From: Chrysomallon squamiferum
Lineage: Eukaryota > Animalia > Mollusca
Assembly: GCA_012295275.1 (NCBI GenBank)
Contig: CM022665.1
Coordinates: forward strand, 48,794,001 to 48,858,000
Direction of reading: 5' to 3'
Length of the DNA: 64,000 nt
Below the pieces are notes generated by a model. The model was not told the origin of the DNA and did no database searches. It was given only the letters and a program-made list of their open reading frames with translations. Positions 229 through 31,750 of this stretch are shown here, in pieces. Each line of letters opens with the position of its first letter. Position 1 is the stretch's first letter. The position numbers and the translations under genes were made by a program.

Positions 229-1469
229 CATTCAGCCGTCCACATAAACGTGTGGCCAGATTTCAACAGATGTTTCTATCTAAATTATTATAAGTATAAA
301 ATGAACCAATCAAAACACATTCTTATCTTCAACATTTCTCTGTGAATTAATTTGACAATTTTCGAAACTATAAAATAGAAAAGACAAGGTTCAGAGTTTT
401 ATTTCAAAATGAATTTCAACGTTTTCTTCTTCTGTTCGTGGTTGGCAGCATTTCCAAACAAAAGAGAGGTGACTAAATTTTTAAAATTATTATTATTATT
501 ATTATTGTTTCATTAGTTATTTTATTTTATTTTATTTTTGTATTTATTCTAAAATTAACATACACGCACGCAATCACACACATTTGGTGCTACTGTAATG
601 AATAGTATTTACTTATGTTCACAAATAAATTTGGTGAGTAAAGTTACTAGTTTTTTTCATAAGTTTACTTTTTTTTTCTTTAATTATTTTATTTTATTTT
701 ATTTTTTTTTTTCCTGTTATTTTATGTCATTTTTATTTATTTATTTATTTAGTTAGTTAGTTAGTTAGTTGAATTTCTTTTATGAATTTGATCTGTAAAA
801 CTTTGCTTTGTATGAAATCAACTTTTTTAATTCTCGTGATTTGAACGAGTTATTAATATAAGCTCATCCGATGTGTTTTGAAATACAAATGCGCTAAAAT
901 GTAAATGTTGAAACAGATGGAAGCTGCGACACGTACACACAAGCAGTAAACTAATCTATGTGCTGCCAACTGTCGTCCTCAACGAGCACAGGACGTTGAC
1001 GAATGCAAGAATCATTGTACTCGCGATCCACAGTGCTTGGTAGGAAACTACTTGCGAGTGTTTTCTGTGGACAAGCTACAGCCGTTAAAACATTCAGTCG
1101 CATGAAACTCTGTCCTCAGGGTAAGTGTTCACAGTACTGTGATTTCAGACATGATGTAGTGTTTATATCCAGGAAGCTTATGCTTTAGTGTCTACCCACC
1201 GATTTCTGTCTGTCTGTCCACCGCTCCGTCTGTCTGTCTATCTCTATCTGCCTATCTATCTATCCATCTATCTATCTATATCTATCTATCTGTTTGTCTA
1301 TCTCTCGATCTCTAAACATATTTTACTTATATTAATGGAGCAAAAATTCTATTAAAATTCTTTATATTTCTAAACCGTCATTTTATTAGTTCGGCCGACT
1401 TTTCATCAATAAACGAAGCAATAAAATGATACAATATTTACACTAGGATATTACTGTATCTTATTATAA

Positions 1470-1504
<35 letters not shown>

Positions 1505-2469
1505 AAAAACTAGTATAACAGTGTATGTTAGTTAAAACAACGTGTACACAGATTAGTATATCATTGTACACTTTTTAAAACCAACACTGTATATAACGGA
1601 ATGGAACGTATATGATTTGTTATGGTATTTGTCACAGATAATATATGTGGTCTCTTCTGCATGAATGGTGGGACTGTTAGTGACGACTGTTCTACTTGTA
1701 GCTGTGTCAAACCTTGGTCAGGACCTTTCTGTTGTAAGTAACATTTACGTGACGTGTGATTACCTGACTATTACATTTCTAATCTTGAGTAATATTTTGA
1801 TTGTTATTACAGTTCTAGTTTAGGAATAATGTTATTGTTATTTTCAATCTCAGCAGTATTATCCACAGTCTGAGAGTATTTTTGACTAACGTTTTCATGT
1901 AATGACTCTCTAATTGTTATTCGCGAATGCTGACATTTCAATAACGTTACAGATCTGATTTACTCGAGTTTTGTAGATGTGATTTTATCCAGGTTATAAT
2001 TTCGATTTCAGTTATTCTTTAGTTATTGCTATGACTAATTAATTAAATATAGATAATGATATTACGTTTTCTGTGTACATTAGACACTTTTCGTTCATTA
2101 AACATGATCCACGTATGAAACTTAATCTTCTCCTAGAAGTTACACATATCCACACCCTGAAATTATCAACGGGTTTGTTTTCAAGAACTTTTCTCCTGAG
2201 TTAAAGAAGAAAATGCGGGTTTAGACTGATACACGAATACTGATATATTTTGCAGAAAAATGTAACATCTCGTGTCATAATGGTGGAAAGAAACATGGTG
2301 CACCTTTATTTTGTTGTGAGTAAAGTTTTTAAGTAATACGATAAAGAAAACAATCAGTGAGATTTGAACACTATAGTTGAGAAACACTTCAATACGTCCA
2401 TTCCATTTAGAAAGCCTTGTAGTTACACACCATTTAATTTAAGACAATCTAGCTACAACATTTTATAGC

Positions 2470-2900
2470 CATACTGAATACAATATCATTACAATATTTA
2501 ATAACTACACTTGACATAGGATAACTACTCTTCATAATTACAGCCATCATAATAACACTGTACTTGTAAATATACTGAACACAGCATAACGTCAATGTTC
2601 TACCAGTACACTACATACAATATAACTACAAACAATGAACACAGTATAATCACATTTCACAGCTAAAACCATATCAATTACATTGTTGCTGCAATCACTG
2701 AACAAAATATTTATACAGTATTTTATGAAAACACTGAACACAATATAACTACAATGTTTTGTAACTACATGTACACAATATAACTACCATGTTTTATAAT
2801 TACACTGACCACAATATGACTAAAATAATTTATAACTACAGTGAACAGAATATAACTATAATGTTTTATAACTGGAATGAACACAAAATAACTAAAGTAT
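2470..2900 (+). repeat. Degenerate tandem repeat of about 36 bp (ACACTGAACACAATATAACTACAATGTTTTATAACT-like)
   Basis: Visible periodicity; the same repeat occurs inverted at about 24915-25110 in the equivalent intron of copy C. Confidence 0.65.
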
Positions 2901-3079
2901 ACTGTGCCAAATAAGTTTAGCAGTCACGTACACGATATGAAACACAGACAACATCATTGGATATTGAATTTATTTGTACACAGTATTCCACTGATAGAGC
3001 ATTTTTCAATGTAGCCAGCAGTAACACGTTGTCACCGTGTCAACGTCGTTGCTTTGATGTCAACTGATGAAACGGATAT

Positions 3080-3480
3080 TAAGAATATGAGGATGCTTTT
3101 CGCGTACCTACCATTCGCAAACTGAACACAAAGTGAATAGTGTCTGATCCTATTGTCAGCGTCGCCAGTGTTGGTGTATCCTGGCCCGTCTCAGACGTTC
3201 CTGAACGTGACGCGCTGTCAGAGGAACAGCTACAACAGGGCGACGTGCTTGTAATCCAGCATCAGGGAGACGGTTACGGACAGTTTGAGAGGACAGTTTT
3301 TTCCTTTTCTTTTTGGATAATGTTGGCTCACTCCATCAAAATGTGATTTCAGTACATCCTGTATTGCACGCGCTTCTTCGACATGCTTTCGGATATTATG
3401 TACTCTTTTTAATAACGTACTTATTATAGCAGATAATTGCGCTACGTTCGAAGACTGACGGGTCAGTAACCAGCCTAGTA
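3080..3480 (-). mobile_element. Degenerate Tc1/mariner (Tc1-like) transposase fragment in intron 3 of copy A
   Basis: A minus-strand frame not in the ORF track reads QTVRNRLPDAGLQARRPVVAVPLTARHVQERLRRARIHQHWRR*Q*DQTLFT. This matches the Tc1 pattern 'TVRNRL..GL.ARRP...P.LT..H...RL.WA..H..W....W..VLF'. It contains stops, and no TIRs were found. Confidence 0.75.
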
Positions 3481-5589
3481 AATAATATATGTACATGCAT
3501 TACACGTTTTAGTAAAATGTAGTTTAAACGTTTTAAACTGCTTTATATTATGAGTTCGAGGACTTATTTACATTTAGAAGAGAAAAATGCCACTTGTGAA
3601 ATTGTTTCCAGACAGTACTATTTTGTTATCATAGTTTGTTATTTGCTAGGATCTATTACAAAAAAGACTTATTATAGTTACTACGAGGAAAAAACACATT
3701 ACACACACTATAGATTCTACTAGTATATGTTGTAAAGTTAGAAACTATTTGCACACATTCTAATAAGAAATAAGAATTTGTCTTTATATTTATTACAGCC
3801 AATGACGGAAATTCAGACGGTTGTACCTGTTCTTTTTCTGGTAACTGGACGGGACTTGAATGTGGTAAATACAATATAAAATGTTTATAATATTTATTTC
3901 TTTACATAAAATGCTGAACTCATAGTCTTTTGAACTGTTAAACGTTAGGATATATCTTATAATGCTCTGCTGTTAAAACAAATCCTCAGTATCACTTAAG
4001 CTGTTTACTTTTATAACAAATCTAACTATTTTACTTACTATCACAATATCTTCTTACATTTATGACACTGTCAGGATCTCTTTACATGAAATATGTGACT
4101 CTTGTGTATCTGAAAAATAATATACTCATAAATCCATATAAAATAAATATTTCAAAATGCATAAAATATAAATAAATTGATAATATGCATCAAATATAAA
4201 GGACAATATTATTCATTTATCTGTTTATCTCTGTGTCTGTCGTTATTAATGTTTTTTTATTCGTACATTTTAGTTCAGCCATTACTCCATTAAATATGGA
4301 AAAAGAAAATCTTGCTTTTCTGACCAAAAACGAATATTTATTTCGTTTTATATAAATCGATGATCTTGATCCCAAACCTGAGAATGTTACTCATAACTAC
4401 ATGAGTCACTCAAGATTATTTTGTTTAAACTATTTTATTTTACACGCATAGATTTATAAAATAACGTATTAGCAGCTAACTGAATTTTGCACAAGAAATC
4501 TTCGTTTGATTCTCATAGCTTTCTGTTATTATTAATATTGAAGACAACTAACTAAAATTGACAAACATCCACAGTCTGAATACAGACATTTTAAAGATTT
4601 TTTTTGAACAAAGTCAACCTTAATCACAGTAAACTCATTTCAAGAGATTGTTTATCGAACTTGCTGGAACTATTCAATAATCTATTATTTTTATAAATAT
4701 CATAACACAGGTAGGTTTACTGAATTAAATATTAATAACGTGTGATTATTCTTAATCAATAAGAGTTGTCTTTCTTCATTTTTTTTTTCAAAATAAATTT
4801 TAATACTGTTAGTGAGAGTGCTCTCCCCTGAACACTGCTCTTAGTTTATATCCGTGGCCATATTAATATATTAAATTTAAATATCTGTTTTTGATTTTTT
4901 GATTTTATTTATAAATCGTCAGACCCTGCAGTTACTGAAAATATCAACTTTAACTTAAAATAATACAGAATTTATTATCATACTTTGTATTGTTTCTTTA
5001 TGTTTAACATCTTTCTAAAAATATACGAATGTCATATATTAATATTTTAGATTGGCGTTTGATAAAACATGTCTAAATCAAATATTTTGATTTCCAACGA
5101 GAACACATTGAAATGAAGGAATCTGTGGTTTAAGATTATGTAAAAAAAAATATTAAAATTGAAGTAAAAATAAAAATAAAATAAAATGTAAGACATTTAA
5201 TAAAAACAGCAACAACAACATAATTTAAAGGCATTTTACAATAAGTATTAATGCCAATAATAAAATGGTAGTTCCAGAGATTATTATACCTATTTAGCAG
5301 TGCAAACACACACAAACACACACTGATATGTTAGTTTTCTCCGAAGATCAATGACACAGAATATAAACAATATAAAAGCTGATATACTGCTTTCCTTTGG
5401 TTACAATTTCTATTTTAAGAAATATTAATATTTTAAGGATGTAATTTCTATGAATAGGTTTCAGGAATCGGTTATTTTTGAAAGCTAAGAAAATTTAAAC
5501 TAGACCATGCATTAACAACTAAACCTATTTCAAACAGGTTCCAACTTTCGGCATCACGTGACATCACGTGACAACTTCTGCAGAAAAGG

Positions 5590-5780: not shown

Positions 5781-6049
5781 AAACCTGCCTAGGCCGGGTA
5801 TAATTTTCTTCATACAAAATTGCTGAGTTCCACATATGTTGTTTACTGAAATCGTTTATTGATACTGTGATAGGATAGCTGGATAAACTGTAAGCTATAC
5901 ACAGATTGTCTTTTCTTTACTACTAACGTGTTCGCTATTTTCTTCGCACGATTGATATATACATATATTTTTATTATTATTAATTTTTTTACTCAATTAA
6001 CTGAAGTTGAAATTCTTTTCAAAATGTCAGTGTGTTTTGTTTCATATTG

Positions 6050-8100
6050 TTCTGGCCTAAACTATAATACAAACAGAAAAAAAAATAATTTTAAATGAAT
6101 AAGTGTCATCTGGAATTCAGAAAATGAGAAGTCCATCTGTAGCTTTATTTTAATTTTGTTTCACATCAGGTAGCAGATGATAACATCGTATTAGTACTAG
6201 ATTCATACTTGATGACACTACCGTTTTATTTTTTATTTTATTTTATTATTTTATTTCACTATTTCGTTATTAAATACTTTGGAACTGAAATGATATTTTA
6301 GAAATGTGAAAAAATTCCATGTTGAGACTTACTGGTTAGGTCAACATGCGAGTATTTAGAAGTCAGAACTGGAAATATATTTTCAAACGATGAAACAAAA
6401 TCAATATTTAAAAATTTTGTTCAGATAAGTCGAAGGATCTTAAAACATTTAACTATTTATTAATGATTCAGAATATATTTTGTTTTAAGTGTACAAGAAT
6501 GCATTTTATAGTAACCTAATTTATCAGTTTTGACAGAAGATAATTTATGCTTGCTTAAACCGTGCTAGTGTATGAGTCAACATTTCTGTGAAAAAGTAAA
6601 TGGCATCAGCTCAAATACACTTAACATTTCAACTTTTAACACAAAGATGTTTTTGACTTCCCTGAGTACCCTGTATTATTTATACTTCAATAATAAACAG
6701 TTTAAAACTGCTGAAAGTTGTTTTTTTCAGACAGGTGTTTTTAATTACAGTGTGTAGACTGTATTATTTATACTTCAATAATAAACAAGAATATAAAACT
6801 GCTGAAAGCTGTAGGTTACTAGCAGGTGATTTATGAGTATTTGAATGTGTGTTGTGAATCGTTTGTGACTTCTTTATTGAATCTGTTCATTGTTGCTGTC
6901 ACAACATCTGTGAATAAACAGTACGCTGTAAACAGTTTTATTTTTACATTTTTTATACTTACAAGTTTGTTACTTTATTTACAGAATAGCTTTCCTTATT
7001 CATTTTTGATGAAGTAATCGAAATTTAAATGAATATCTTCTGTTGTAAATGTTTGCAGTGTATTTTGAAAATTTCCAGATGACTGTTTTATTTATATTTG
7101 TGCGTGTAACCATAATAAAAAATGGTCAAATTAATGATTTAAGATATTTCGATTTTATTTAGACTTTGGAATCTGAAAAGCCAAGCTGTAAGTTTATTTA
7201 ATTCAGTATCACATCAGGTAGTGGATGATAACATCGTATTTGAACTAGATTCATACTTGATGACGGTCAACTAGATTTGTTTTATAAATCATTTTATTTT
7301 ATTTGAATATTTGATTTCTTTATTTTGTTTATTAAATACCGTCTTCTTCTTTTCTTCTTTTCTTGTTCTTCTTATTATTATTATTTCATTGCTAATATTT
7401 GCAGACTAACTGCAGTTACGTATGGATGATATGTACTAGTGATGTGTATGTACTAAACAATTGTAAATTATCTACAGTTTAATGATATCACATCTAGAAC
7501 TACTGAAGTTTGTTTGTTACTGGGAGGTGTTTTATTGATATCTCAAAGTGCGTTGTGAACCGTTTGTCACTTGTTTACTGAAAGTGCTCTTTGTTGCCGT
7601 CACAGCGTTTCTGAATAAACTGTAAACTGTACAGACTTTTCTCTGTATCACATCAGGTAGTAGATAAAAACATCGTATTTGTACGTGACCCGTGTTTATA
7701 CTGACCTACCTTTCTTCATGCACTAATCATTTGTTTAATAGTAACGAAACATTTTTTTTTGTTTTTGTTTTTTTTTGTTCATGAATTAACTGAAATTTAA
7801 ATGTACATCTGCTGTTTATAGTATTTTGGGTTAATTTCCAAGTGAGTGTTTTATTTTGTACTCGCCATATGTTTGAAACAAACTGGACAAATCAATAATT
7901 TTAGTGAAATTGATGTTATCTGGATTTCAAAAATTAATAAGCCAACTTGTAGCTTTATTTCAATTTGTACCACGCCAGCTAGCAGATGAGAAAATTGATG
8001 TTATCTGGATTTCAGAAATGAATAAGCCAAGTTTTAGCTTTATTTAATTTTGTATCACATCAGGTAGTAGATGGTATCATCGACTTTGTACTGGAATTAT
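6050..8100 (+). repeat. Multi-copy upstream module (AGCTTTATTT...TCACATCAGGTAG.AGATGATAACATCG) in front of copy B
   Basis: Copies at about 6140, 7190, 7645, 7950 and 8035; also about 19480 (upstream of D) and inverted at about 29400-31750 (upstream of C). Confidence 0.7.
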
Positions 8101-8130
8101 GCCTTGTCTCACAGATTTTTGAAATTATTT

Positions 8131-8185
<55 letters not shown>

Positions 8186-8336
8186 TTTTTTATTTTTTTA
8201 TTTTATTTTATTTTATTTTATATTTTATTGATTGATTCTTTGATTGATTGATTTATTTCATTTCATTTCATTTCGTTTTCATTATTTGTTGTTCATCGTG
8301 ATATTATTCTTATTATCATTATTATTATTATTATTA

Positions 8337-9005: not shown

Positions 9006-9131
9006 AAACACACTCGTCTGTGTACACACATCAGTAACGTTAAACATGATAAACATCAAGCTCACTGAACACACTCGTCTGTGTACACACATCAGTAACG
9101 TTAAACATGATAAACATCAAGCTCACTGAAC
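9006..9131 (+). repeat. Perfect tandem duplication of about 62 bp
   Basis: AACACACTCGTCTGTGTACACACATCAGTAACGTTAAACATGATAAACATCAAGCTCACTG occurs twice. Confidence 0.9.
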
Positions 9132-9557
9132 AATTATAATCATGGATGATAAAGGTAAACTAAGTTGTATAAACTATTATTTTGAGGTAGCATTCGACAT
9201 TCTACAGCTTGTTGTATGATGATATTTGATATCACAGCGTGGTTGGCTGGAAAACGGCAGTCCGATAAAAACAAAGAGTCAGGGACATTTCACCAGCATA
9301 CCCTGTGAAAAACCTCCATTATATCACATCCACACACTCGCCCACATCTACAAACACGTTCACATTCAGCCGTCCACATAAACGTGTGGCCAGATTTCAA
9401 CAGATGTTTTTTTTTTTATCTAAATTATTATAAGTATAAAATGTACAAATCAAAACACATTCTTATCTTCAACATTGTGCCGGCTCTCTGCGAATTAATT
9501 TTACAATTTTCGAAACTATAAAACAAGAAACGAAAGGTTCAGAGTTTTTATTTCAAA

Positions 9558-9666
9558 ATGAATTTCAACGTCGTCTTCTTCTCTGTATGTCTTCAGTCCG
9601 TGGTTGTCAGCTTATCGAAAGAAACGAGGGGTGACTAAATTCTTTAAATTATTATTATCATTATTA

Positions 9667-9740
<74 letters not shown>

Positions 9741-9766
9741 TCATTGGTGCTTTTATTTTATTTGGT

Positions 9767-9807
<41 letters not shown>

Positions 9808-10675
9808 GCTAAAATTAATATACACACACCAGCGCACGCGCACACAGTTGGTGCTACTGTAATGAATAGTATTTACTTATTGAGTAAAGTTATTAGTTTT
9901 TTTCATAAGTTTACTTTCTTTAGGCAAATATCTTATTTATTTTATTTTTATTTATATTTATATTTATATTTCTTTATTTCTTTCTTTATTTGGTTATTTA
10001 TTTATTTATTTGAATTTCTTTTATGGTCTCTTTACTTTGTATTAAATCAACTTTTTCAATTCTCGTGATTTGAACACGTTACAGATGTAAGCTCAGTCGT
10101 TGTGTTTTGAATTACAAATGAGATAAAATGTACATATTGAAACAGGTGGAGGCTGTGACACGTACGCAGAAGGAGAAAACTATTTCATGTGTAGTTCTGG
10201 TTGTCGTAATATAGCTGTAAACAGCATTCAGGAATGCAAGGACATTTGTACTAGCGAGCCACAGTGCTTCATAGGAAACTACGTCGATGAAATCTGTTAT
10301 TTGTGTCCACAAAATGTAGCCGCTTTCAAACTGTTGAAGTTGAAATATTTCGCGAAATCCTGTATTCAGGGTAAGTGTTCACAATACTTTCATTTCAAAC
10401 ATAATGTACTGTCTATATACAGCAAATTTATGCTTTAGTGACTGCCCACCGATTTCTGTCTGTCTGTCCACCGCCCCGTCTCTCTGTCTGTCTATCTCTA
10501 CTTTCCTATCTACCCATCTATCTATCTATATATATATATATATCAATATAGCTATCGGTCAGTCTATCCCTCTATCTGCCACCGATATATATTTGTCTGT
10601 CAGTCTTTCTAAGTATCTATCTTTACCTGCCTATCTTTCCATCTATATATCGATATATCTGTATCTATCTATCTA

Positions 10676-10742
<67 letters not shown>

Positions 10743-23252: not shown

Positions 23253-26200
23253 CTGATGCTCTTAAAACAGGGCACAGTTTTATTTAATACAGGGTCCGGC
23301 TCTAATATGTCTAATCGTATGTTTCTACAAAACAAAGAAAGCTGCAATGAATGTTATGAAAATGGACAGAATGTCTAAGATGGACAAGAGCAATGGACAG
23401 CATGTTTGATATGTACAGAAGTCAGGGAGATGTACAGCAGACACGGACAGCATGAAAAGAGACTCACTGATTGCGATATCATTTATAAAATGCTGATACT
23501 ATCTGCCGAATGAAAAATATAAAATTCTGAGAAAAGTTATTCGATAACTCTGAAGACGTTTTAGAACTAATATCCTGTGTACCAGTCTCTGCCTTAATTT
23601 TTATGTACTTAAACTTTCAAGGGCTTGTTAATTAAGATCAAACATACCACAACGATCTCCAATCCACGATCCGTTACACACACAAGCATCGCAAGCAGCA
23701 TTACGAGTTCCGTGATCACCACACGTCATGTTACAAAACTCTGCCACAGAACAGAAAATACTAATCACAATACAAAGCGAAGATTCCTTGTGCAAAACTG
23801 ATTAAGTTGGTATACGTTGTGTTAAAAATCTACACGTGTAAAATAAAATAGTTTAAGTTATAGTGAGATTTGTGATATTGAGATTTATTTAAGATATAGT
23901 GAGATTTGTGATATTGAGATTTATTTAAGATATAGTGAGATTTGTGATATTGAGATTTATTTAAGATATAGTGAGATTTGTGATATTGAGATTTATTTAA
24001 GATATAGTGAGATTTGTGATATTGAGATTTATTTAAGATATAGTGAGATTTGTGATATTGAGATTTATTTAAGATATAGTGAGATTTGTGATATTGAGAT
24101 TTATTTAAGATATCGTGAGATTTGTGATATTGAGATTTATTTAAGTTATAGTGAGATTTGTGATATTGAGATTTATTATAAAAGTAAATAGCTATTGTAA
24201 TAGTGAAAGTTGTTACAACAGTAAACAGACAGTAATTTTAAGATTTGTTATAACAGTAAATATATATTGTGATTGTAAGATCTGTTATAATAGTAAACAG
24301 ATATTGTGATATGAGGTTTGTATTAAAAGTAAACAAATATTTTGATAGTGAGATTTGTTATAAAAAGTAAATAGTTTATAAAAGTAAACAGTTTAGTGAA
24401 ATGCATTATAAGATATCTACTGACCTCTGATAGTTTAAAAGACTATGAGTTCAGTATGTTGTATAACTTAGTTAATATTATATATATTTTATGTTATCGT
24501 ATTTACCACATTCAGATCCTTTCCAGTTACCAGCACATGAACAAGTACAACCTGTCACATGAGACTGGTCATCGCCTTCTGCAATAAATATAAACATTCA
24601 GATTATTTATTTGAATATGGCTGTGCAAATAGTTTTATAACTATAAAACATACACTACAGTAAAGCTTAGTTTTGGTGGTCGAACGAATATCCTATGTAT
24701 ACATACATATATATATATATCTTTGTTGTCTTTTGTACTTCCAAGTTACAAAAATAAAGGGTTTTTCAGATTGATCATCACAAACGACAGAGCATGTTCT
24801 CGTCTACTTCAGTGTACAAAACACATACTTACAGGGATATGTTATATAAGGCTGCCTTTGTGGCCTGAAGCCTTTCAGATTTTCCATTTTAGTTGCATTG
24901 TGTTCATTTTAGTTGTAAAACATTGCAGTTACATTGTGTTCAGTGTACTTATAAACGTTGAAGATATATTGTGTTCAGTGTAGTTATAAAACATTGTAGA
25001 TACAAAACATTGTTATTATTTTGTGTTCAGTGTAGTTATAAAGAATTATAGCTATATTTTGTTCAATGTAGTTATAAAACATTGTAGTTATAAAGAATTA
25101 TAGTTATATTTTTTCACTTGTCATGTTAACTAAAATCTTTAGTCTTTCTTATATTACTTGGAAATGTCACTCACTACAATATCGTTTTGCATTCTGTTTG
25201 CCTCCATTTTGACACGTGATGTTGCATAGTTCTGAGATAAGAGAAAAGTAGAATTCGTGTATCAGACTAAACTGTATTTTTTAAACTCATAATAACTGTT
25301 ATTTAAAAGATACAAACATCATTGTGGACATATTTTACAAAAGAATGACGCTGTATACAAATGTGATGGTTTTTTTTGTGACTAAAGGGAAGTTTATCAT
25401 GTACAAATTAAAAAAAAAAAAAAAAAAAAAATTTGCGATTATAACATCACTGACTTCATAAGACCTAAAACAAAACTTTAGTCCATATAATGTTACTGGT
25501 GAAATGAGAAACTATAACTACAATGTTAGTGAAATGACAACTACAACATTATTTTAAATCACAGCTACAGGTTTAACTAAGTTACAAATCCCACGTTAAT
25601 TAAATGACAACACCAACATTGCTGAACCTTAAAAAATTCATAACAAGAACGAAAGTTAAAACAGTACTTAACATTATTGAAATTACAAATTTACATCAAA
25701 TATCAGCCATACATTTCTGAAACTTCAATAATATTACAATAATAGATTTACTGAAATCAAAACTGTAGTATTACGGTAATTACGTATAAAATAATTGTTA
25801 CTTACCACAGAATGTTCCTGTCCAAGGGTTGACACAGCTACACCTAGTACATTCACCATTAATAGTCCCACCATTCAAACAGGCAACACCACAGATATTA
25901 TCTGAGACAGTAACATACAATACATTGACTCTGGTTTTAAATAATATACAATATTATAACAGTTTGTGTATACGTTGTTTTAAATAATATACAATATTAT
26001 ATAAGTTTGTGTACACGTTGTTTAAACAATATAGTGTTATATTAGTTTGTGTACAAGTTGTCTAATATAACATACAGTGTTATACCGGTTTGTGTACACG
26101 TTGTTTTAAATAATACACAGTGATATACTAGTTTGTGTACACTTTTTAAATAATACACAGTGATATACTAGTTTGTGTACACTTTTTAAATAATACACAG

Positions 26201-27598
26201 TGATATACTAGTTTGTGTACACTTTTTAAACAATATACAGTGTTGTACCAGTTTGTGTACACGTTGTTTTAAATAATATACAGTGATATACTAGTTTGTG
26301 TACACTTTTTAAACAATATACAGTGTTGTACCAGTTTGTGTACACGTTGTTTTAAATAATATACAATATTATACCAGTTTGTGTATACGTTGTTTTAAAC
26401 AACATCCAGTGTTATACTAGTTTGTGTACACGTTGTTTTAAATAATATACAACAGTATGGTAGATTGTGTACAGCTTTTAAATATTATACAGAATTATAC
26501 CAGTTTGTGTACACGTTTTTCAAATAATATACAATATTACAGTGGTTCGGGTACAGCTTTTAAATAATATACAGTTTTATACCAGTTTGTGTACACGTTT
26601 TTTAAATACTATACAGTGTAATACCAGTTAGTGTACACGTTTTTTAAATACTATACAGTTTTATACCAGTTAGTGTACACGTTTTTTAAATACTATACAG
26701 TTTTATACCAGTTAGTGTACACGTTTTTTAAATACTATACAGTTTTATACCAGTTTGTGTACACGTTTTTCAAATAATATACAGTTTTATACCAGTTTGT
26801 GTACACGTTTTTTAAATACTATACAGTTTTATACCAGTTAGTGTACACGTTTTTACGTTGTGTAGCGTAATCACAGCGTTTTAATATTTATGTAAAATTT
26901 AGTACAGCAGATAACAGTGGACAAGAATGGGTTTCTGATGTATACACATTACACGACTGTCAACACTTACCCTGAGGACAGGACTTTGCAAAAAATTGTA
27001 TTACACTGTTTCTCTCAACGTAGGTAAGGTTTTTATGCAGAAGACAAAGAGGTATGGCATACTCTCCCGCTGTGCATTGTGGGTCAGCAGTACACTTCCT
27101 CTTGCATTCATCCAAGCTGTTTACTGTGCTAGTGTCTAATGTGACCTCAGGACAGCCTGCAATTTGCTTTTCGTCGACGTACGTGTTGCAAACTCCACCT
27201 AGTTTAATATTTGAAACATATCTCATTTGTATTACGAAATAAAGCGACTTTTATTTCTAAAGTTAACTTGTTAACATGCTAAAAATCATCAAAATCAGAA
27301 AGTTACGGACTAGAATTATGAAGTAAGTTACTGACTTGGAAGTAACATTATTACTGAACCAAAAATAAATAATATTCGCTACAAGAGCCAAGCAACAAAC
27401 AAACACCAATCCTTATATACATAAGAAAGGTAGAAAACGAACAAAATCTGTTAGAATGAGCAGAAAAAAGGAAAATAATAAAATAATAATAATAATAATA
27501 ATAATAATTTAAAGAATACAGTCACCTCTCTTTTGCTTGAAAATGCTGCCAACCACGAACGGCAGACATAAGGTGAAGAAGAAAATGTTGAAATTCAT
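21715..27598 (-). CDS. Copy C: secreted Cys-rich modular protein, 331 aa, with one extra EGF exon; exons 27598-27526, 27198-26971, 25901-25806, 24578-24507, 23740-23648, 23076-22984, 22613-22515, 22309-22199, 21845-21715
   Basis: GT-AG phase-1 introns give a 996-nt open frame. It reads MNFNIFFFTLCLPFVVGSIFKQKR (hydrophobic signal peptide then KR), the PAN-like exon GGVCNTY...NSLDECKRKCTADPQCTAGEY...FAKSCPQ (ORF track 26960-27226), EGF exons, a ShK-like exon ending CSKTCGTC, and a terminal exon identical to that of copy B. Confidence 0.85.
23858..24178 (+). repeat. 36-bp minisatellite (TATAGTGAGATTTGTGATATTGAGATTTATTTAAGA) in a copy C intron
   Basis: About 9 near-perfect units. Confidence 0.95.
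25935..26855 (-). repeat. 36-39-bp minisatellite in intron 2 of copy C (same family as 11020-11430)
   Basis: CCAGTTTGTGTACACGTTGTTTTAAATAATATACAG-like units; reverse complement of the copy B array. Confidence 0.9.
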
Positions 27599-29379: not shown

Positions 29380-31100
29380 ATGTTTAGCAGAGCTGTCATC
29401 AAGTGTGTCTGTTGTACAAAAACGATCTTATCATGTACTACCTGGCGTGATACAAAATTCAATACACCACAGCTTGCTTTTCCATTTTCTCAACAACACA
29501 AAACATCGTTTTATCTAAAAATATTAACTTGTTCAGGTTGTTTTATGGATATGACAAGCGTGATATGAAACAATAATTTGAAAATTCACAACATATATTG
29601 TCAGTTTGTATCACGAAAGATATACATTTAACTTCAGTTAATTCAGCTGTTTGGTAACAAACAAGAAGGTGTTAAAAAAAAAGACAGTATATTAAACAAA
29701 TGCAGTCAGTGTCATCAAGTATGAATCTAGCTCAAACACGATGTTATCATCTACCACCTGATGTCATAAAAACTGAAATAAACCCAGAGCTTGACTTTTC
29801 ATTTTCTGAACTGCATAGAACAGAGAAATTTCAAAAATTATTAATTTCTTCAGTTTGTTTTATGGATATGACAAACACGAAATAAAACAATCATTTGGGA
29901 ACTTTACAAATACGTCGTCAGTTTGTAAACCTGCATAAATACGTTTAAGCTGCAGTTAATTCTTTAAATAAGAAATGTATAGCAATTTTGTGAACAAACT
30001 CAACGAACTTGTTGGTATTAAAGAAAGAAAGAAAAAAAACCCAGAACAAAACAAAATATTAAATAAATGTCAGCTTTATCAACAGTGAATCAAGTACAAA
30101 CACGATGTTATCATCTACCAGCTGGCGTGATACAAAATTCAGTACACTTCAGCTTGCTTTTCCACTTTCTCAACCACACCACGCATCGTTTTATTTGTTT
30201 AAAAGCTCCAAATAACAGTGGTCAAGATATGGTATTAGTAAATATTCAAAAATTAACAGCTGCTTAGTACATACAGAGAACTAATAAATATCATATTAAT
30301 ATAGCTTCCGTACACAACTGCTGTTAGTCAACAAATAACAATAACAACAACAACAACAACAACAATAAAAATAATAATAATGATAATAATAATAATGAAT
30401 TAATTAGTTAATTAATTGATTAAATAATCAATTATAGAAATGAAATAAAAAGTGGTCAGTGTCATCAAGCATGAATCTGGTACAAACACGATGTTATTAT
30501 CTACTGTCTGATGTGATACGAACAGAAATAAAGCTGCAACCTGACTTTTGATTTTCTGAACTGCCGAGAACATGTATTTATCTAGAACTGTTAATTTGTT
30601 CAGTTTGTTCTATGGTTATAACAAACACGAAATAAAACAATCATTGAGAAATTTACAAACACATTGCCAGTTTTTACATCCGCGGATATACATATATAGA
30701 ACAACAAAAAATACGTTGTCACCTTCATCACGTGTGAATCAAGTACACGATGTTATCATCTACCACCAATGTGAAACAAAATTAAATAAAGCTACAGCAT
30801 GTTAATATAGGGTGCACATGAAATTAAAAACACTTTTCTGTTAAAAGTTTAAATGTTATCTATATTTAAGCTGCTGTCATTTACCGTTTCCTACAAATAT
30901 TGACTCGTATACATGCACTGTATAAGCAAACATAAGTAATCTCACAGGCATATTTTGTTCTGTTAAAATTATTTAATTTATATAATATAATACTGATAAA
31001 TTCTGTTACCATGAAATGCATAACTGTACACTAAAAACAAAAAATATTCTGAAACATTAATAAATATGTAAAAAAATGTGTTTTATTTTAGAACTGTTTA

Positions 31101-31135
<35 letters not shown>

Positions 31136-31414
31136 AGCTTAGCTTTTTAACATTCTTCGACTTATTTAAACAAAATTTTTAAATATTGATTTCTTTTCAT
31201 CTCTTGAAAATACATTTCCAGTTCTGACTTACAAAGACTCGCATGCTGATCTTAACAGTAAGTCTGAACATGGATTTCTTTTCATCTTTTTTGTAGTAAT
31301 AGTTGTCAAGATGTGGTATTACTAAACAGAAAATTAACAGCTGTTTAATACGTACACACAACTAATAAATATCATATAAATATAGATTACATATGTAACA
31401 GTTGTTAGTCAACA

Positions 31415-31492
<78 letters not shown>

Positions 31493-31750
31493 AAGAAGAA
31501 GAAGAAGACGGAATTTATTAAATCAAATAAAGAAACCAAATAATAAAATAAAATAAAATAAAATAAAACGTTTTATTTAACAAAGCTAGGTGAGCGTCAC
31601 CAAGAATGAATGTGATAAAAATACAGTTTTTTCATCTACCATCTGATGCGAAACAAAACTGAACAAAGCTACAGCTTGACTTTTCTGAAGTCCAGATAAC
31701 ATCGATTTTACCATCTAGTACCTGAAGTGATGCAAATTGGAATAAAACAA
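29380..31750 (-). repeat. Inverted paralog of the upstream module region of copy B
   Basis: Repeated CGATGTTATCATCTACC..CTGATGTGATA units; 31145-31280 is the reverse complement of 6310-6445. Confidence 0.7.

Follow-up and report, generated by a model that had tools for sequence, protein, structure and literature searches.

A PAN exon probably driven apart by selection, beside exons that bear the marks of gene conversion, in tandem genes of Chrysomallon squamiferum

Tandem genes for a predicted secreted, disulfide-rich protein occur in the window (the whole stretch of Chrysomallon squamiferum DNA analysed, 64,000 nucleotides). We put a probability of roughly 60% on the reading that their PAN exons were driven apart by positive selection while other exons were overwritten by gene conversion, with the PAN domain binding a changing external target, likeliest a microbial surface. 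The argument for selection comes from one pair of copies, A and B, and that for conversion from near-identical tracts that reach into introns.

The window is AT-rich animal DNA in which self-comparison and splice-site mapping located three copies of the family, A, B and C. Copy B (plus strand, 9558-15448) has nine exons with an open reading through of 315 aa. Copy C (minus strand, 27598-21723) has ten exons and 348 aa, including one EGF exon (EGF5b) additional to those of B. B and C lie tail to tail at a spacing of 6.3 kb, and all of their introns are in phase 1; the PAN exon of B has AG..GT borders, also in phase 1. Exon order is a hydrophobic leader, PAN, four to five EGF-like modules (one of them divided between two exons), a ShKT-like exon with five Cys and a last exon with six Cys. 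The features are:

9558..9630, plus strand: copy B exon 1, carrying the start codon; its hydrophobic leader is, on inspection by eye, a predicted signal peptide
10146..10370, plus strand: copy B putative PAN/apple exon, 74 aa, 9 Cys; Pfam PAN_1 E=0.012, below the cut-off; spliced in an X8 RNA contig
11488..11583, plus strand: copy B EGF1 exon, within the A-B near-identity tract 11435-11689
12100..12159, plus strand: copy B EGF2 exon, first half of the split EGF-like module
12519..12584, plus strand: copy B EGF3 exon, second half of the split module, within the A-B tract 12457-12591
13727..13819, plus strand: copy B EGF5 exon, Pfam EGF_2 E=1.3e-4, within the B-C tract 13724-13844
14434..14532, plus strand: copy B EGF6 exon, in the tail yet diverged from C (19/32 aa)
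14969..15079, plus strand: copy B ShKT-like exon, 5 Cys, within the B-C tract 14877-15202
15326..15448, plus strand: copy B last exon with stop codon, 6 Cys, cationic, no family found in the searches described below, within the B-C tract 15288-15490
27526..27598, minus strand: copy C exon 1 (predicted signal peptide)
26971..27198, minus strand: copy C putative PAN/apple exon, 75 aa, 7 Cys; Pfam PAN_1 E=3.2e-4; ESM Atlas PAN clusters at 0.95
24507..25901, minus strand: copy C EGF1 (25901-25806), EGF2 (25231-25175) and EGF3 (24578-24507)
22515..23740, minus strand: copy C EGF5 (23740-23648), EGF5b (23076-22984, absent in B) and EGF6 (22613-22515)
21723..22309, minus strand: copy C ShKT-like exon (22309-22199) and last exon (21845-21723)
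409..3864, plus strand: copy A, broken and truncated, with exon 1 (409-468), PAN (917-1120), EGF1 (1638-1733), EGF2 (2256-2315) and EGF3 (3799-3864), and no tail exons
20364..20555, plus strand: orphan relic lying between B and C, derived from the upstream region and exon 1 of this family

Exon 1 of copy A is 13 nt shorter than those of B and C, and its PAN exon carries stops and frameshifts. tblastn found no EGF5, EGF6, ShK-like or last exon for this copy; these were likely lost by deletion, because A keeps DNA resembling the region downstream of B. The first-pass annotation had called the PAN exon of A different again; it does differ from that of B, but it is not an intact third variant.

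Several further observations concern the locus. No PAN exon follows exon 1 of the orphan relic (20364-20555). The B and C proteins hold 45 and 49 Cys outside exon 1, both odd numbers, so each has at least one free Cys, and disulfide-linked dimers are possible. A tandem repeat of about 42-43 bp is common to the intron before EGF1 in A (1502-1581), B (11008-11431) and C (25934-26854), with very unequal copy numbers; the intron arrays at 12775-13672 and 23852-24374 are copy-specific. Short local duplications lie upstream of A and B (1-89, 140-228, 9274-9362; 9007-9132), and further family copies may lie before position 1, since the window begins inside an upstream duplication. Repeats of about 150 bp that form a dispersed family, 65-85% alike (6033-8230, 19361-19522, 29394-31746), cluster in the spacer between B and C and in those upstream of each. 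The neighbouring gene (36441-62173) is TRANK1/LBA1-like, multi-exon and intact-looking, with TPR repeats and a UvrD-like helicase; its best relatives are Gigantopelta aegis TRANK1-like proteins (79-81% identity; next mollusc 65%).

Three weak lines of evidence point to a PAN domain. The exon of C scores 20.9 bits against a Pfam PAN_1 cut-off of 21.4 and that of B 15.9 bits; all of the ten best family-assigned ESM Atlas matches fall in the PAN family or clan (best score 0.95); and comparison with a kallikrein apple domain gives E=7.6e-5. Both exons carry C-x3-C-x5-C-x9-C and a terminal Cys, in agreement with the six-Cys pattern C...C-x3-C-x5-C...C...C that we take to be that of PAN/apple domains (PF00024), and both have extra Cys. 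Structure models are poor, with a mean pLDDT of 43.8 for AlphaFold2 from a two-sequence alignment and a pLDDT of 62 for a second model.

The tail is harder to place. The ShK-like exon has five Cys at spacings of 15, 9, 3 and 2, one fewer than the six of ShKT (PF01549). The last exon has six Cys at spacings of 5, 15, 7, 3 and 0, ends in CC and holds four Lys, four Arg and four acidic residues. No Pfam family matched either exon at E<=1. Against the PDB, the ShK-like exon gave only three matches, none significant (E 0.57-0.73): ShKT-Ts1 and aurelin, which are ShKT-family by name or paper, and Hui1, which we take to be ShK-type. The last exon had no PDB match and no usable ESM Atlas match, and a fold search with its weak model returned 0 of 48,161 chains at Z>=2. 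Neither exon contains Tyr, so the Lys-Tyr dyad of ShK-type K+ channel toxins is absent from both; according to the accessible part of PMC6409789, lack of the dyad does not exclude channel activity. The constant effector tail proposed by the first-pass annotation is thus not borne out: five of six Cys, no Tyr and no Pfam match in these two exons do not identify an effector, and identity between paralogs within one genome is not constraint.

Relatives of the whole protein were not found in homologue searches, which returned no orthologue. Scoring of six candidates among longer proteins gave no PAN-C homologue, and an alignment search with the ShK-like and last exons gave none from three candidates. 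The PAN profile, run against 1.84 billion representatives, gave 53 matches, all weak per-domain hits in multi-PAN proteins, and 0 of the 53 had any match to a non-PAN exon or the tested EGF/ShK motifs. All these misses are weak evidence of absence. No description of a PAN + EGF + ShKT-like architecture was found in the literature within scope, which lay outside subscription papers and bioRxiv supplements. PAN, ShK and EGF are absent from the main text of PMC7142155, and its supplements, searched apart from file 13, gave no match; the family is also not one of those that the accessible text of PMC7895826 gives as receptor classes of these snails.

Exon-by-exon comparison of B and C gives a patchwork rather than a variable head joined to a constant tail. 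The PAN exons share 27/70 aligned residues or 26/75 columns, concentrated at Cys and the VNS..EC and FAKSC motifs, much as the first-pass annotation had counted (about 27/76). Its figures for three near-identical exons also hold: EGF5 matches at 29/30 aa and 91/93 nt, the ShK-like exon at 36/36 aa and 110/111 nt with the single change synonymous, and the last exon at 40/40 aa and 123/123 nt. The other five shared exons have diverged (exon 1 13/24, EGF1 18/31, EGF2 8/18, EGF3 12/21 and EGF6 19/32 aa). There is no clean head-tail split, because EGF6, which lies between the near-identical EGF5 and ShK-like exons, is among those diverged; the C-terminal exons are not the invariant block that had been described. 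PAN is the most diverged exon of this pair, with nonsynonymous differences of 0.45 against 0.24 in the other unconverted exons (p=3e-6). With shared Cys removed, 19/67 residues are identical in PAN against 40/83 (p=0.018). Synonymous differences, 0.46 against 0.34 by count, do not differ significantly (p=0.26). As a separate observation, EGF6 (14434-14532 in B, 22613-22515 in C) has 16 nonsynonymous and 2 synonymous differences (dN/dS 2.4, p=0.24); it may be a second module under selection.

Seven near-identity tracts of 87-326 nt, each with 2-5 differences, were found in a scan for stretches of at least 80 nt, run for B-C on five segments around exons with the intervening repeat arrays left out. 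Three are shared by B and C (13724-13844, 14877-15202 and 15288-15490, on EGF5, the ShK-like exon and the last exon) and four by A and B (9229-9406, 11435-11689, 12457-12591 and 16085-16171). The A-B tracts include EGF1 and EGF3, and those of B-C cover different exons. Five of the seven cover an exon and extend into intron, with sharp ends, and two lie in non-coding DNA; exons make up about 16% of the gene span, yet five of seven tracts fall on them. Synonymous differences number 2/69 in the three B-C tract exons against 49/128 elsewhere, with exons grouped post hoc, and the intron beside the ShK-like exon is identical between B and C for 90-120 nt on either side. The tracts are likely the product of interlocus gene conversion, because silent sites and intron flanks are also near-identical and different pairs share different exons. 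The idea of homogenised exons therefore stands, in that conversion-like tracts run into introns, but homogenisation is not confined to the tail, given the A-B tracts on EGF1 and EGF3 and the divergent EGF6. Since conversion would explain the identical tail exons, their identity does not imply constraint on the tail. PAN lies outside all seven tracts, perhaps kept there by selection against conversion.

Other origins of the pattern were considered. Assembly artefact is rejected: A-, B- and C-type sequences form separate contigs in runs X1, X2 and X4, and the tracts hold their 2-5 differences. cDNA-mediated conversion is not favoured, as the tracts take in 20-120 nt of intron at one end or both. 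Nor is a PAN exon swapped in from a distant donor, as dS in the A-B exon does not exceed that of the introns.

Diversifying selection on PAN is supported by sequence comparison of A with B. The introns flanking PAN align without gaps between these copies and differ at 30/211 sites (14%, distance 0.158). In the exon, 37/128 to 53/134 zero-fold sites differ (29-40%; p<=0.0012 against intron in four of four alignments), as against 0/17 to 3/19 four-fold sites (0-16%). A codon model gave dN/dS 3.6-8.2 and dS 0.07-0.16 in five of five alignments (p 0.001-0.008), for one pair of which one member is a pseudogene, with 17-19 four-fold sites and p values uncorrected over several exon pairs; these fits skip gapped triples and one stop, and the exon of A was aligned across frameshifts. 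Over the gap-free codons 26-46 of B, a residue is changed in 9/20 codons and none has a silent change only. Neutral simulation at the intron distance of 0.158 predicts 17.4/61 changed codons where 34 were observed, a number reached in 0 of 5000 runs. At a distance of 0.29, the JC value of the most diverged A-B intron stretch (46/192), the PAN excess weakens to P=0.05; that stretch is the highest of the four A-B non-coding stretches measured besides the PAN flanks (5%, 10%, 18% and 24%). Changes fall on both lineages, with 26 A-only and 21 B-only columns. Decay of pseudogene A is not sufficient as an explanation, because decay cannot lift replacement sites above the silent rate. Four other exon pairs have no significant excess (dN/dS 0.55-2.4, p 0.24-0.71).

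The pair that the first-pass annotation had used for the same claim is uninformative. For B-C PAN, three alignments give dN/dS 0.78-0.96 (95% grid 0.4-2) and dS of about 1.0, a ratio indistinguishable from 1 (p 0.5-0.9) and from the EGF exons; EGF1, 2, 3 and 6 pooled give dN/dS 0.59 (0.4-1.0) and dS 0.48. Diversifying selection is thus upheld by A-B and left undecided by B-C. A PAN dN/dS well below 1, with dS equal to neighbouring intron divergence, had been named as the mark of an old duplicate under no positive selection; the B-C ratio is not well below 1, and its dS of about 1 stands beside introns that are barely alignable.

The PAN exon of B does not differ from the window in X1, X2 or X8, all of them contigs, which drop rare variants; X3 does not cover it. 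X1 or X2 may be the same source as the window, though three sites near EGF3 distinguish X1 from it. The variation observed so far is thus one of paralogs and not of alleles. X2 has no A-type PAN contig and X3 no PAN-B contig, at depths too low to imply absence.

RNA contigs of run X8 join PAN to EGF1, EGF1 to EGF2, EGF2 to EGF3 and EGF3 to EGF5 at the predicted GT..AG sites, so that B is shown to be spliced from PAN as far as the beginning of EGF5. One 476-nt contig (depth 6.3) runs from the last 30 nt of EGF3 (ending at 12584) into the first base of PAN-B (10146), with both ends exactly on splice sites, and goes on to include EGF1-3. This makes a loop of 447 nt that keeps the frame and has no stop codon. 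A second contig reaches the same 31-nt node from an A-type EGF2 end, and a third connects that node to EGF5. X2 and X8 also hold an EGF3 variant absent from the window, which X8 RNA splices to an A-type EGF2 end; an additional paralog or allele therefore exists, and this extra EGF3 type would come from another transcribed paralog or from a transcribed allele of A that differs from the window's. The X8 contigs contain no junction between exon 1 and PAN-B, and the introns flanking the loop share no long complementary repeat (best 11 nt). The EGF3-PAN-B junction fits either a back-spliced circle or read-through from an upstream A-like copy, and evidence from contigs of one run at depth 6-11 cannot separate the two.

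The pattern might also have arisen if the duplicates are old, constraint on them has relaxed and conversion left neutral tracts, PAN having merely escaped conversion with fewer structural Cys, copy A having decayed, and the bias towards the tail reflecting the tail-to-tail layout of B and C, in which the 3' exons lie closest. We consider this account without positive selection rather unlikely. It accords with B-C, where the PAN ratio is 0.78-0.96 and dS is about 1, and with tracts that include introns and also occur in broken copy A and, in two of seven cases, in non-coding DNA. The 5% to 24% spread of A-B non-coding divergence means that the PAN flanks could be partly converted, and the simulation at 0.29 then leaves only P=0.05. 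It is harder to square with A-B silent sites in PAN that change no faster than the introns alongside replacement sites that stand 2-3 times higher, or with changes on both lineages, 26 A-only and 21 B-only columns.

The model first put forward, a variable recognition head with a toxin-like or antimicrobial effector tail kept identical by selection, seems unlikely. Complete residue identity in the ShK-like (36/36) and last (40/40) exons, the cationic last exon, PDB matches of the ShK-like exon (E 0.57-0.73), two of three of them ShKT-family by name or paper, and the five of seven tracts on exons that are about 16% of the gene span would all suit it. Silent sites and 90-120 nt of intron are identical too, however, so that recent copying suffices; exons may, by inference, seed conversion merely by staying pairable; EGF6 has diverged despite its place in the tail (dN/dS 2.4, p=0.24); and the ShK-like exon is one Cys short, lacks Tyr and has no significant match. 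Less probable again is that A and B form one transcription unit, in which an A-like PAN-EGF-EGF cassette is spliced into PAN-B to give a two-PAN protein, the window haplotype having a dead first cassette and the PAN exons having diverged as tandem domains within one protein. The 476-nt contig, the A-type EGF2 entry and the EGF5 exit can be joined by a single path that uses all of them, the exon 1-PAN-B junction was not seen, and A lies upstream on the same strand without tail exons. A 447-nt circle back-spliced from B, together with a separate A-like gene, would give the same contig graph; the A of the window differs from the RNA at 1/30 bases; the second contig does not match EGF1 of B at 80%, though window A is 98% like B there; and the data are contigs of one run at depth 6-11, with B's own exon 1 intact.

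The preferred reading, positive selection on PAN with conversion elsewhere, would start from duplication that gave several copies of a secreted binder. Selection would favour new PAN specificities and remove conversions that erase them, while conversion would copy other exons between neighbours where similarity permits; PAN would act as the specificity module on an EGF stalk. For the putative PAN target our estimates are about 40% for microbes, 15% for gamete or self proteins, 15% for matrix or mineral partners and 30% for others. A microbial surface is the best guess because of what PAN domains bind, protein or carbohydrate in the accessible text of PMC7588048, and the symbiotic life of these snails as covered in part by PMC7895826. 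A bolder and quite speculative extension, for a chemosymbiotic vent snail, is a recognition system peculiar to its lineage in which PAN heads under positive selection would be combined in RNA: phase-matched PAN-EGF cassettes of tandem copies would be spliced in series (or as the stop-free 447-nt circle) onto a shared ShKT-like antimicrobial tail, conversion would keep stalk and tail interchangeable, and the bacteria bound would be tuned.

A predicted secreted domain with replacement sites 2-3 fold above its own introns suggests a likely arms race, and the PAN protein is a candidate binder in a group of animals reliant on symbiotic bacteria. The locus would show, within a small region, selection keeping a single exon free of gene conversion. 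It also carries a caution: exons that are identical in two paralogs do not by themselves point to a conserved effector.

Among known systems, aurelin and ShKT-fold peptides (accessible portion of PMC10608444) have in common with the ShK-like exon the C-x3-C-x2-C end motif, and antibacterial aurelin has no functional dyad either; here there are five Cys in part of a 300-aa protein, at E>0.5. PAN/apple proteins (PF00024; plasma kallikrein, factor XI and, in the part available of PMC7588048, a PAN-bearing FREP of Biomphalaria glabrata) have the Cys spacing in common, with weak profile matches, whereas the present proteins have a single PAN with an extra shared Cys15 and no protease, fibrinogen or IgSF domain. 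FREP-type immune receptors have allelic or somatic diversity in the locus; PAN-B is identical to the window in X1, X2 and X8 contigs (a format that drops rare variants). The nearest described layout, by analogy, is that of the CAP-ShK type II proteins of Cumia reticulata, likewise a gastropod, which are secreted and have C-terminal EGF-like, poor ShKT and unclassified 6-Cys modules; its ShK-like peptides are generally without a Lys-Tyr dyad (accessible text of PMC6409789). The N-terminal domain is PAN here and CAP there, Cumia's are salivary proteins of a blood feeder, and the likeness noted is one of layout. In the variable exons of protocadherins, exon 7 of RHCE/RHD and exon 5 of the red and green opsins (available parts of PMC3966226 and PMC3924837), neighbouring paralogs likewise have some domains homogenised and a divergent specificity region; here, by comparison, the tracts differ by pair (A-B against B-C), two intact copies lie in the window, the product is predicted to be secreted and the pattern is seen in one genome. 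Selected sites under conversion show a divergence peak in the available text of PMC3924837, and PAN outside the tracts is as expected where selection rejects conversion (PMC3924837, PMC3966226, same parts). The locus has near-identity tracts over silent and intron sites with sharp ends, and a candidate selected region outside them with excess replacement in A-B, the B-C dN/dS being 0.78-0.96; the B-C PAN dS of about 1.0 against 0.48 in EGF1/2/3/6 matches the divergence-peak description. The protein family appears undescribed within the searches given above, and the evolutionary pattern is one already known from protocadherins and opsins.
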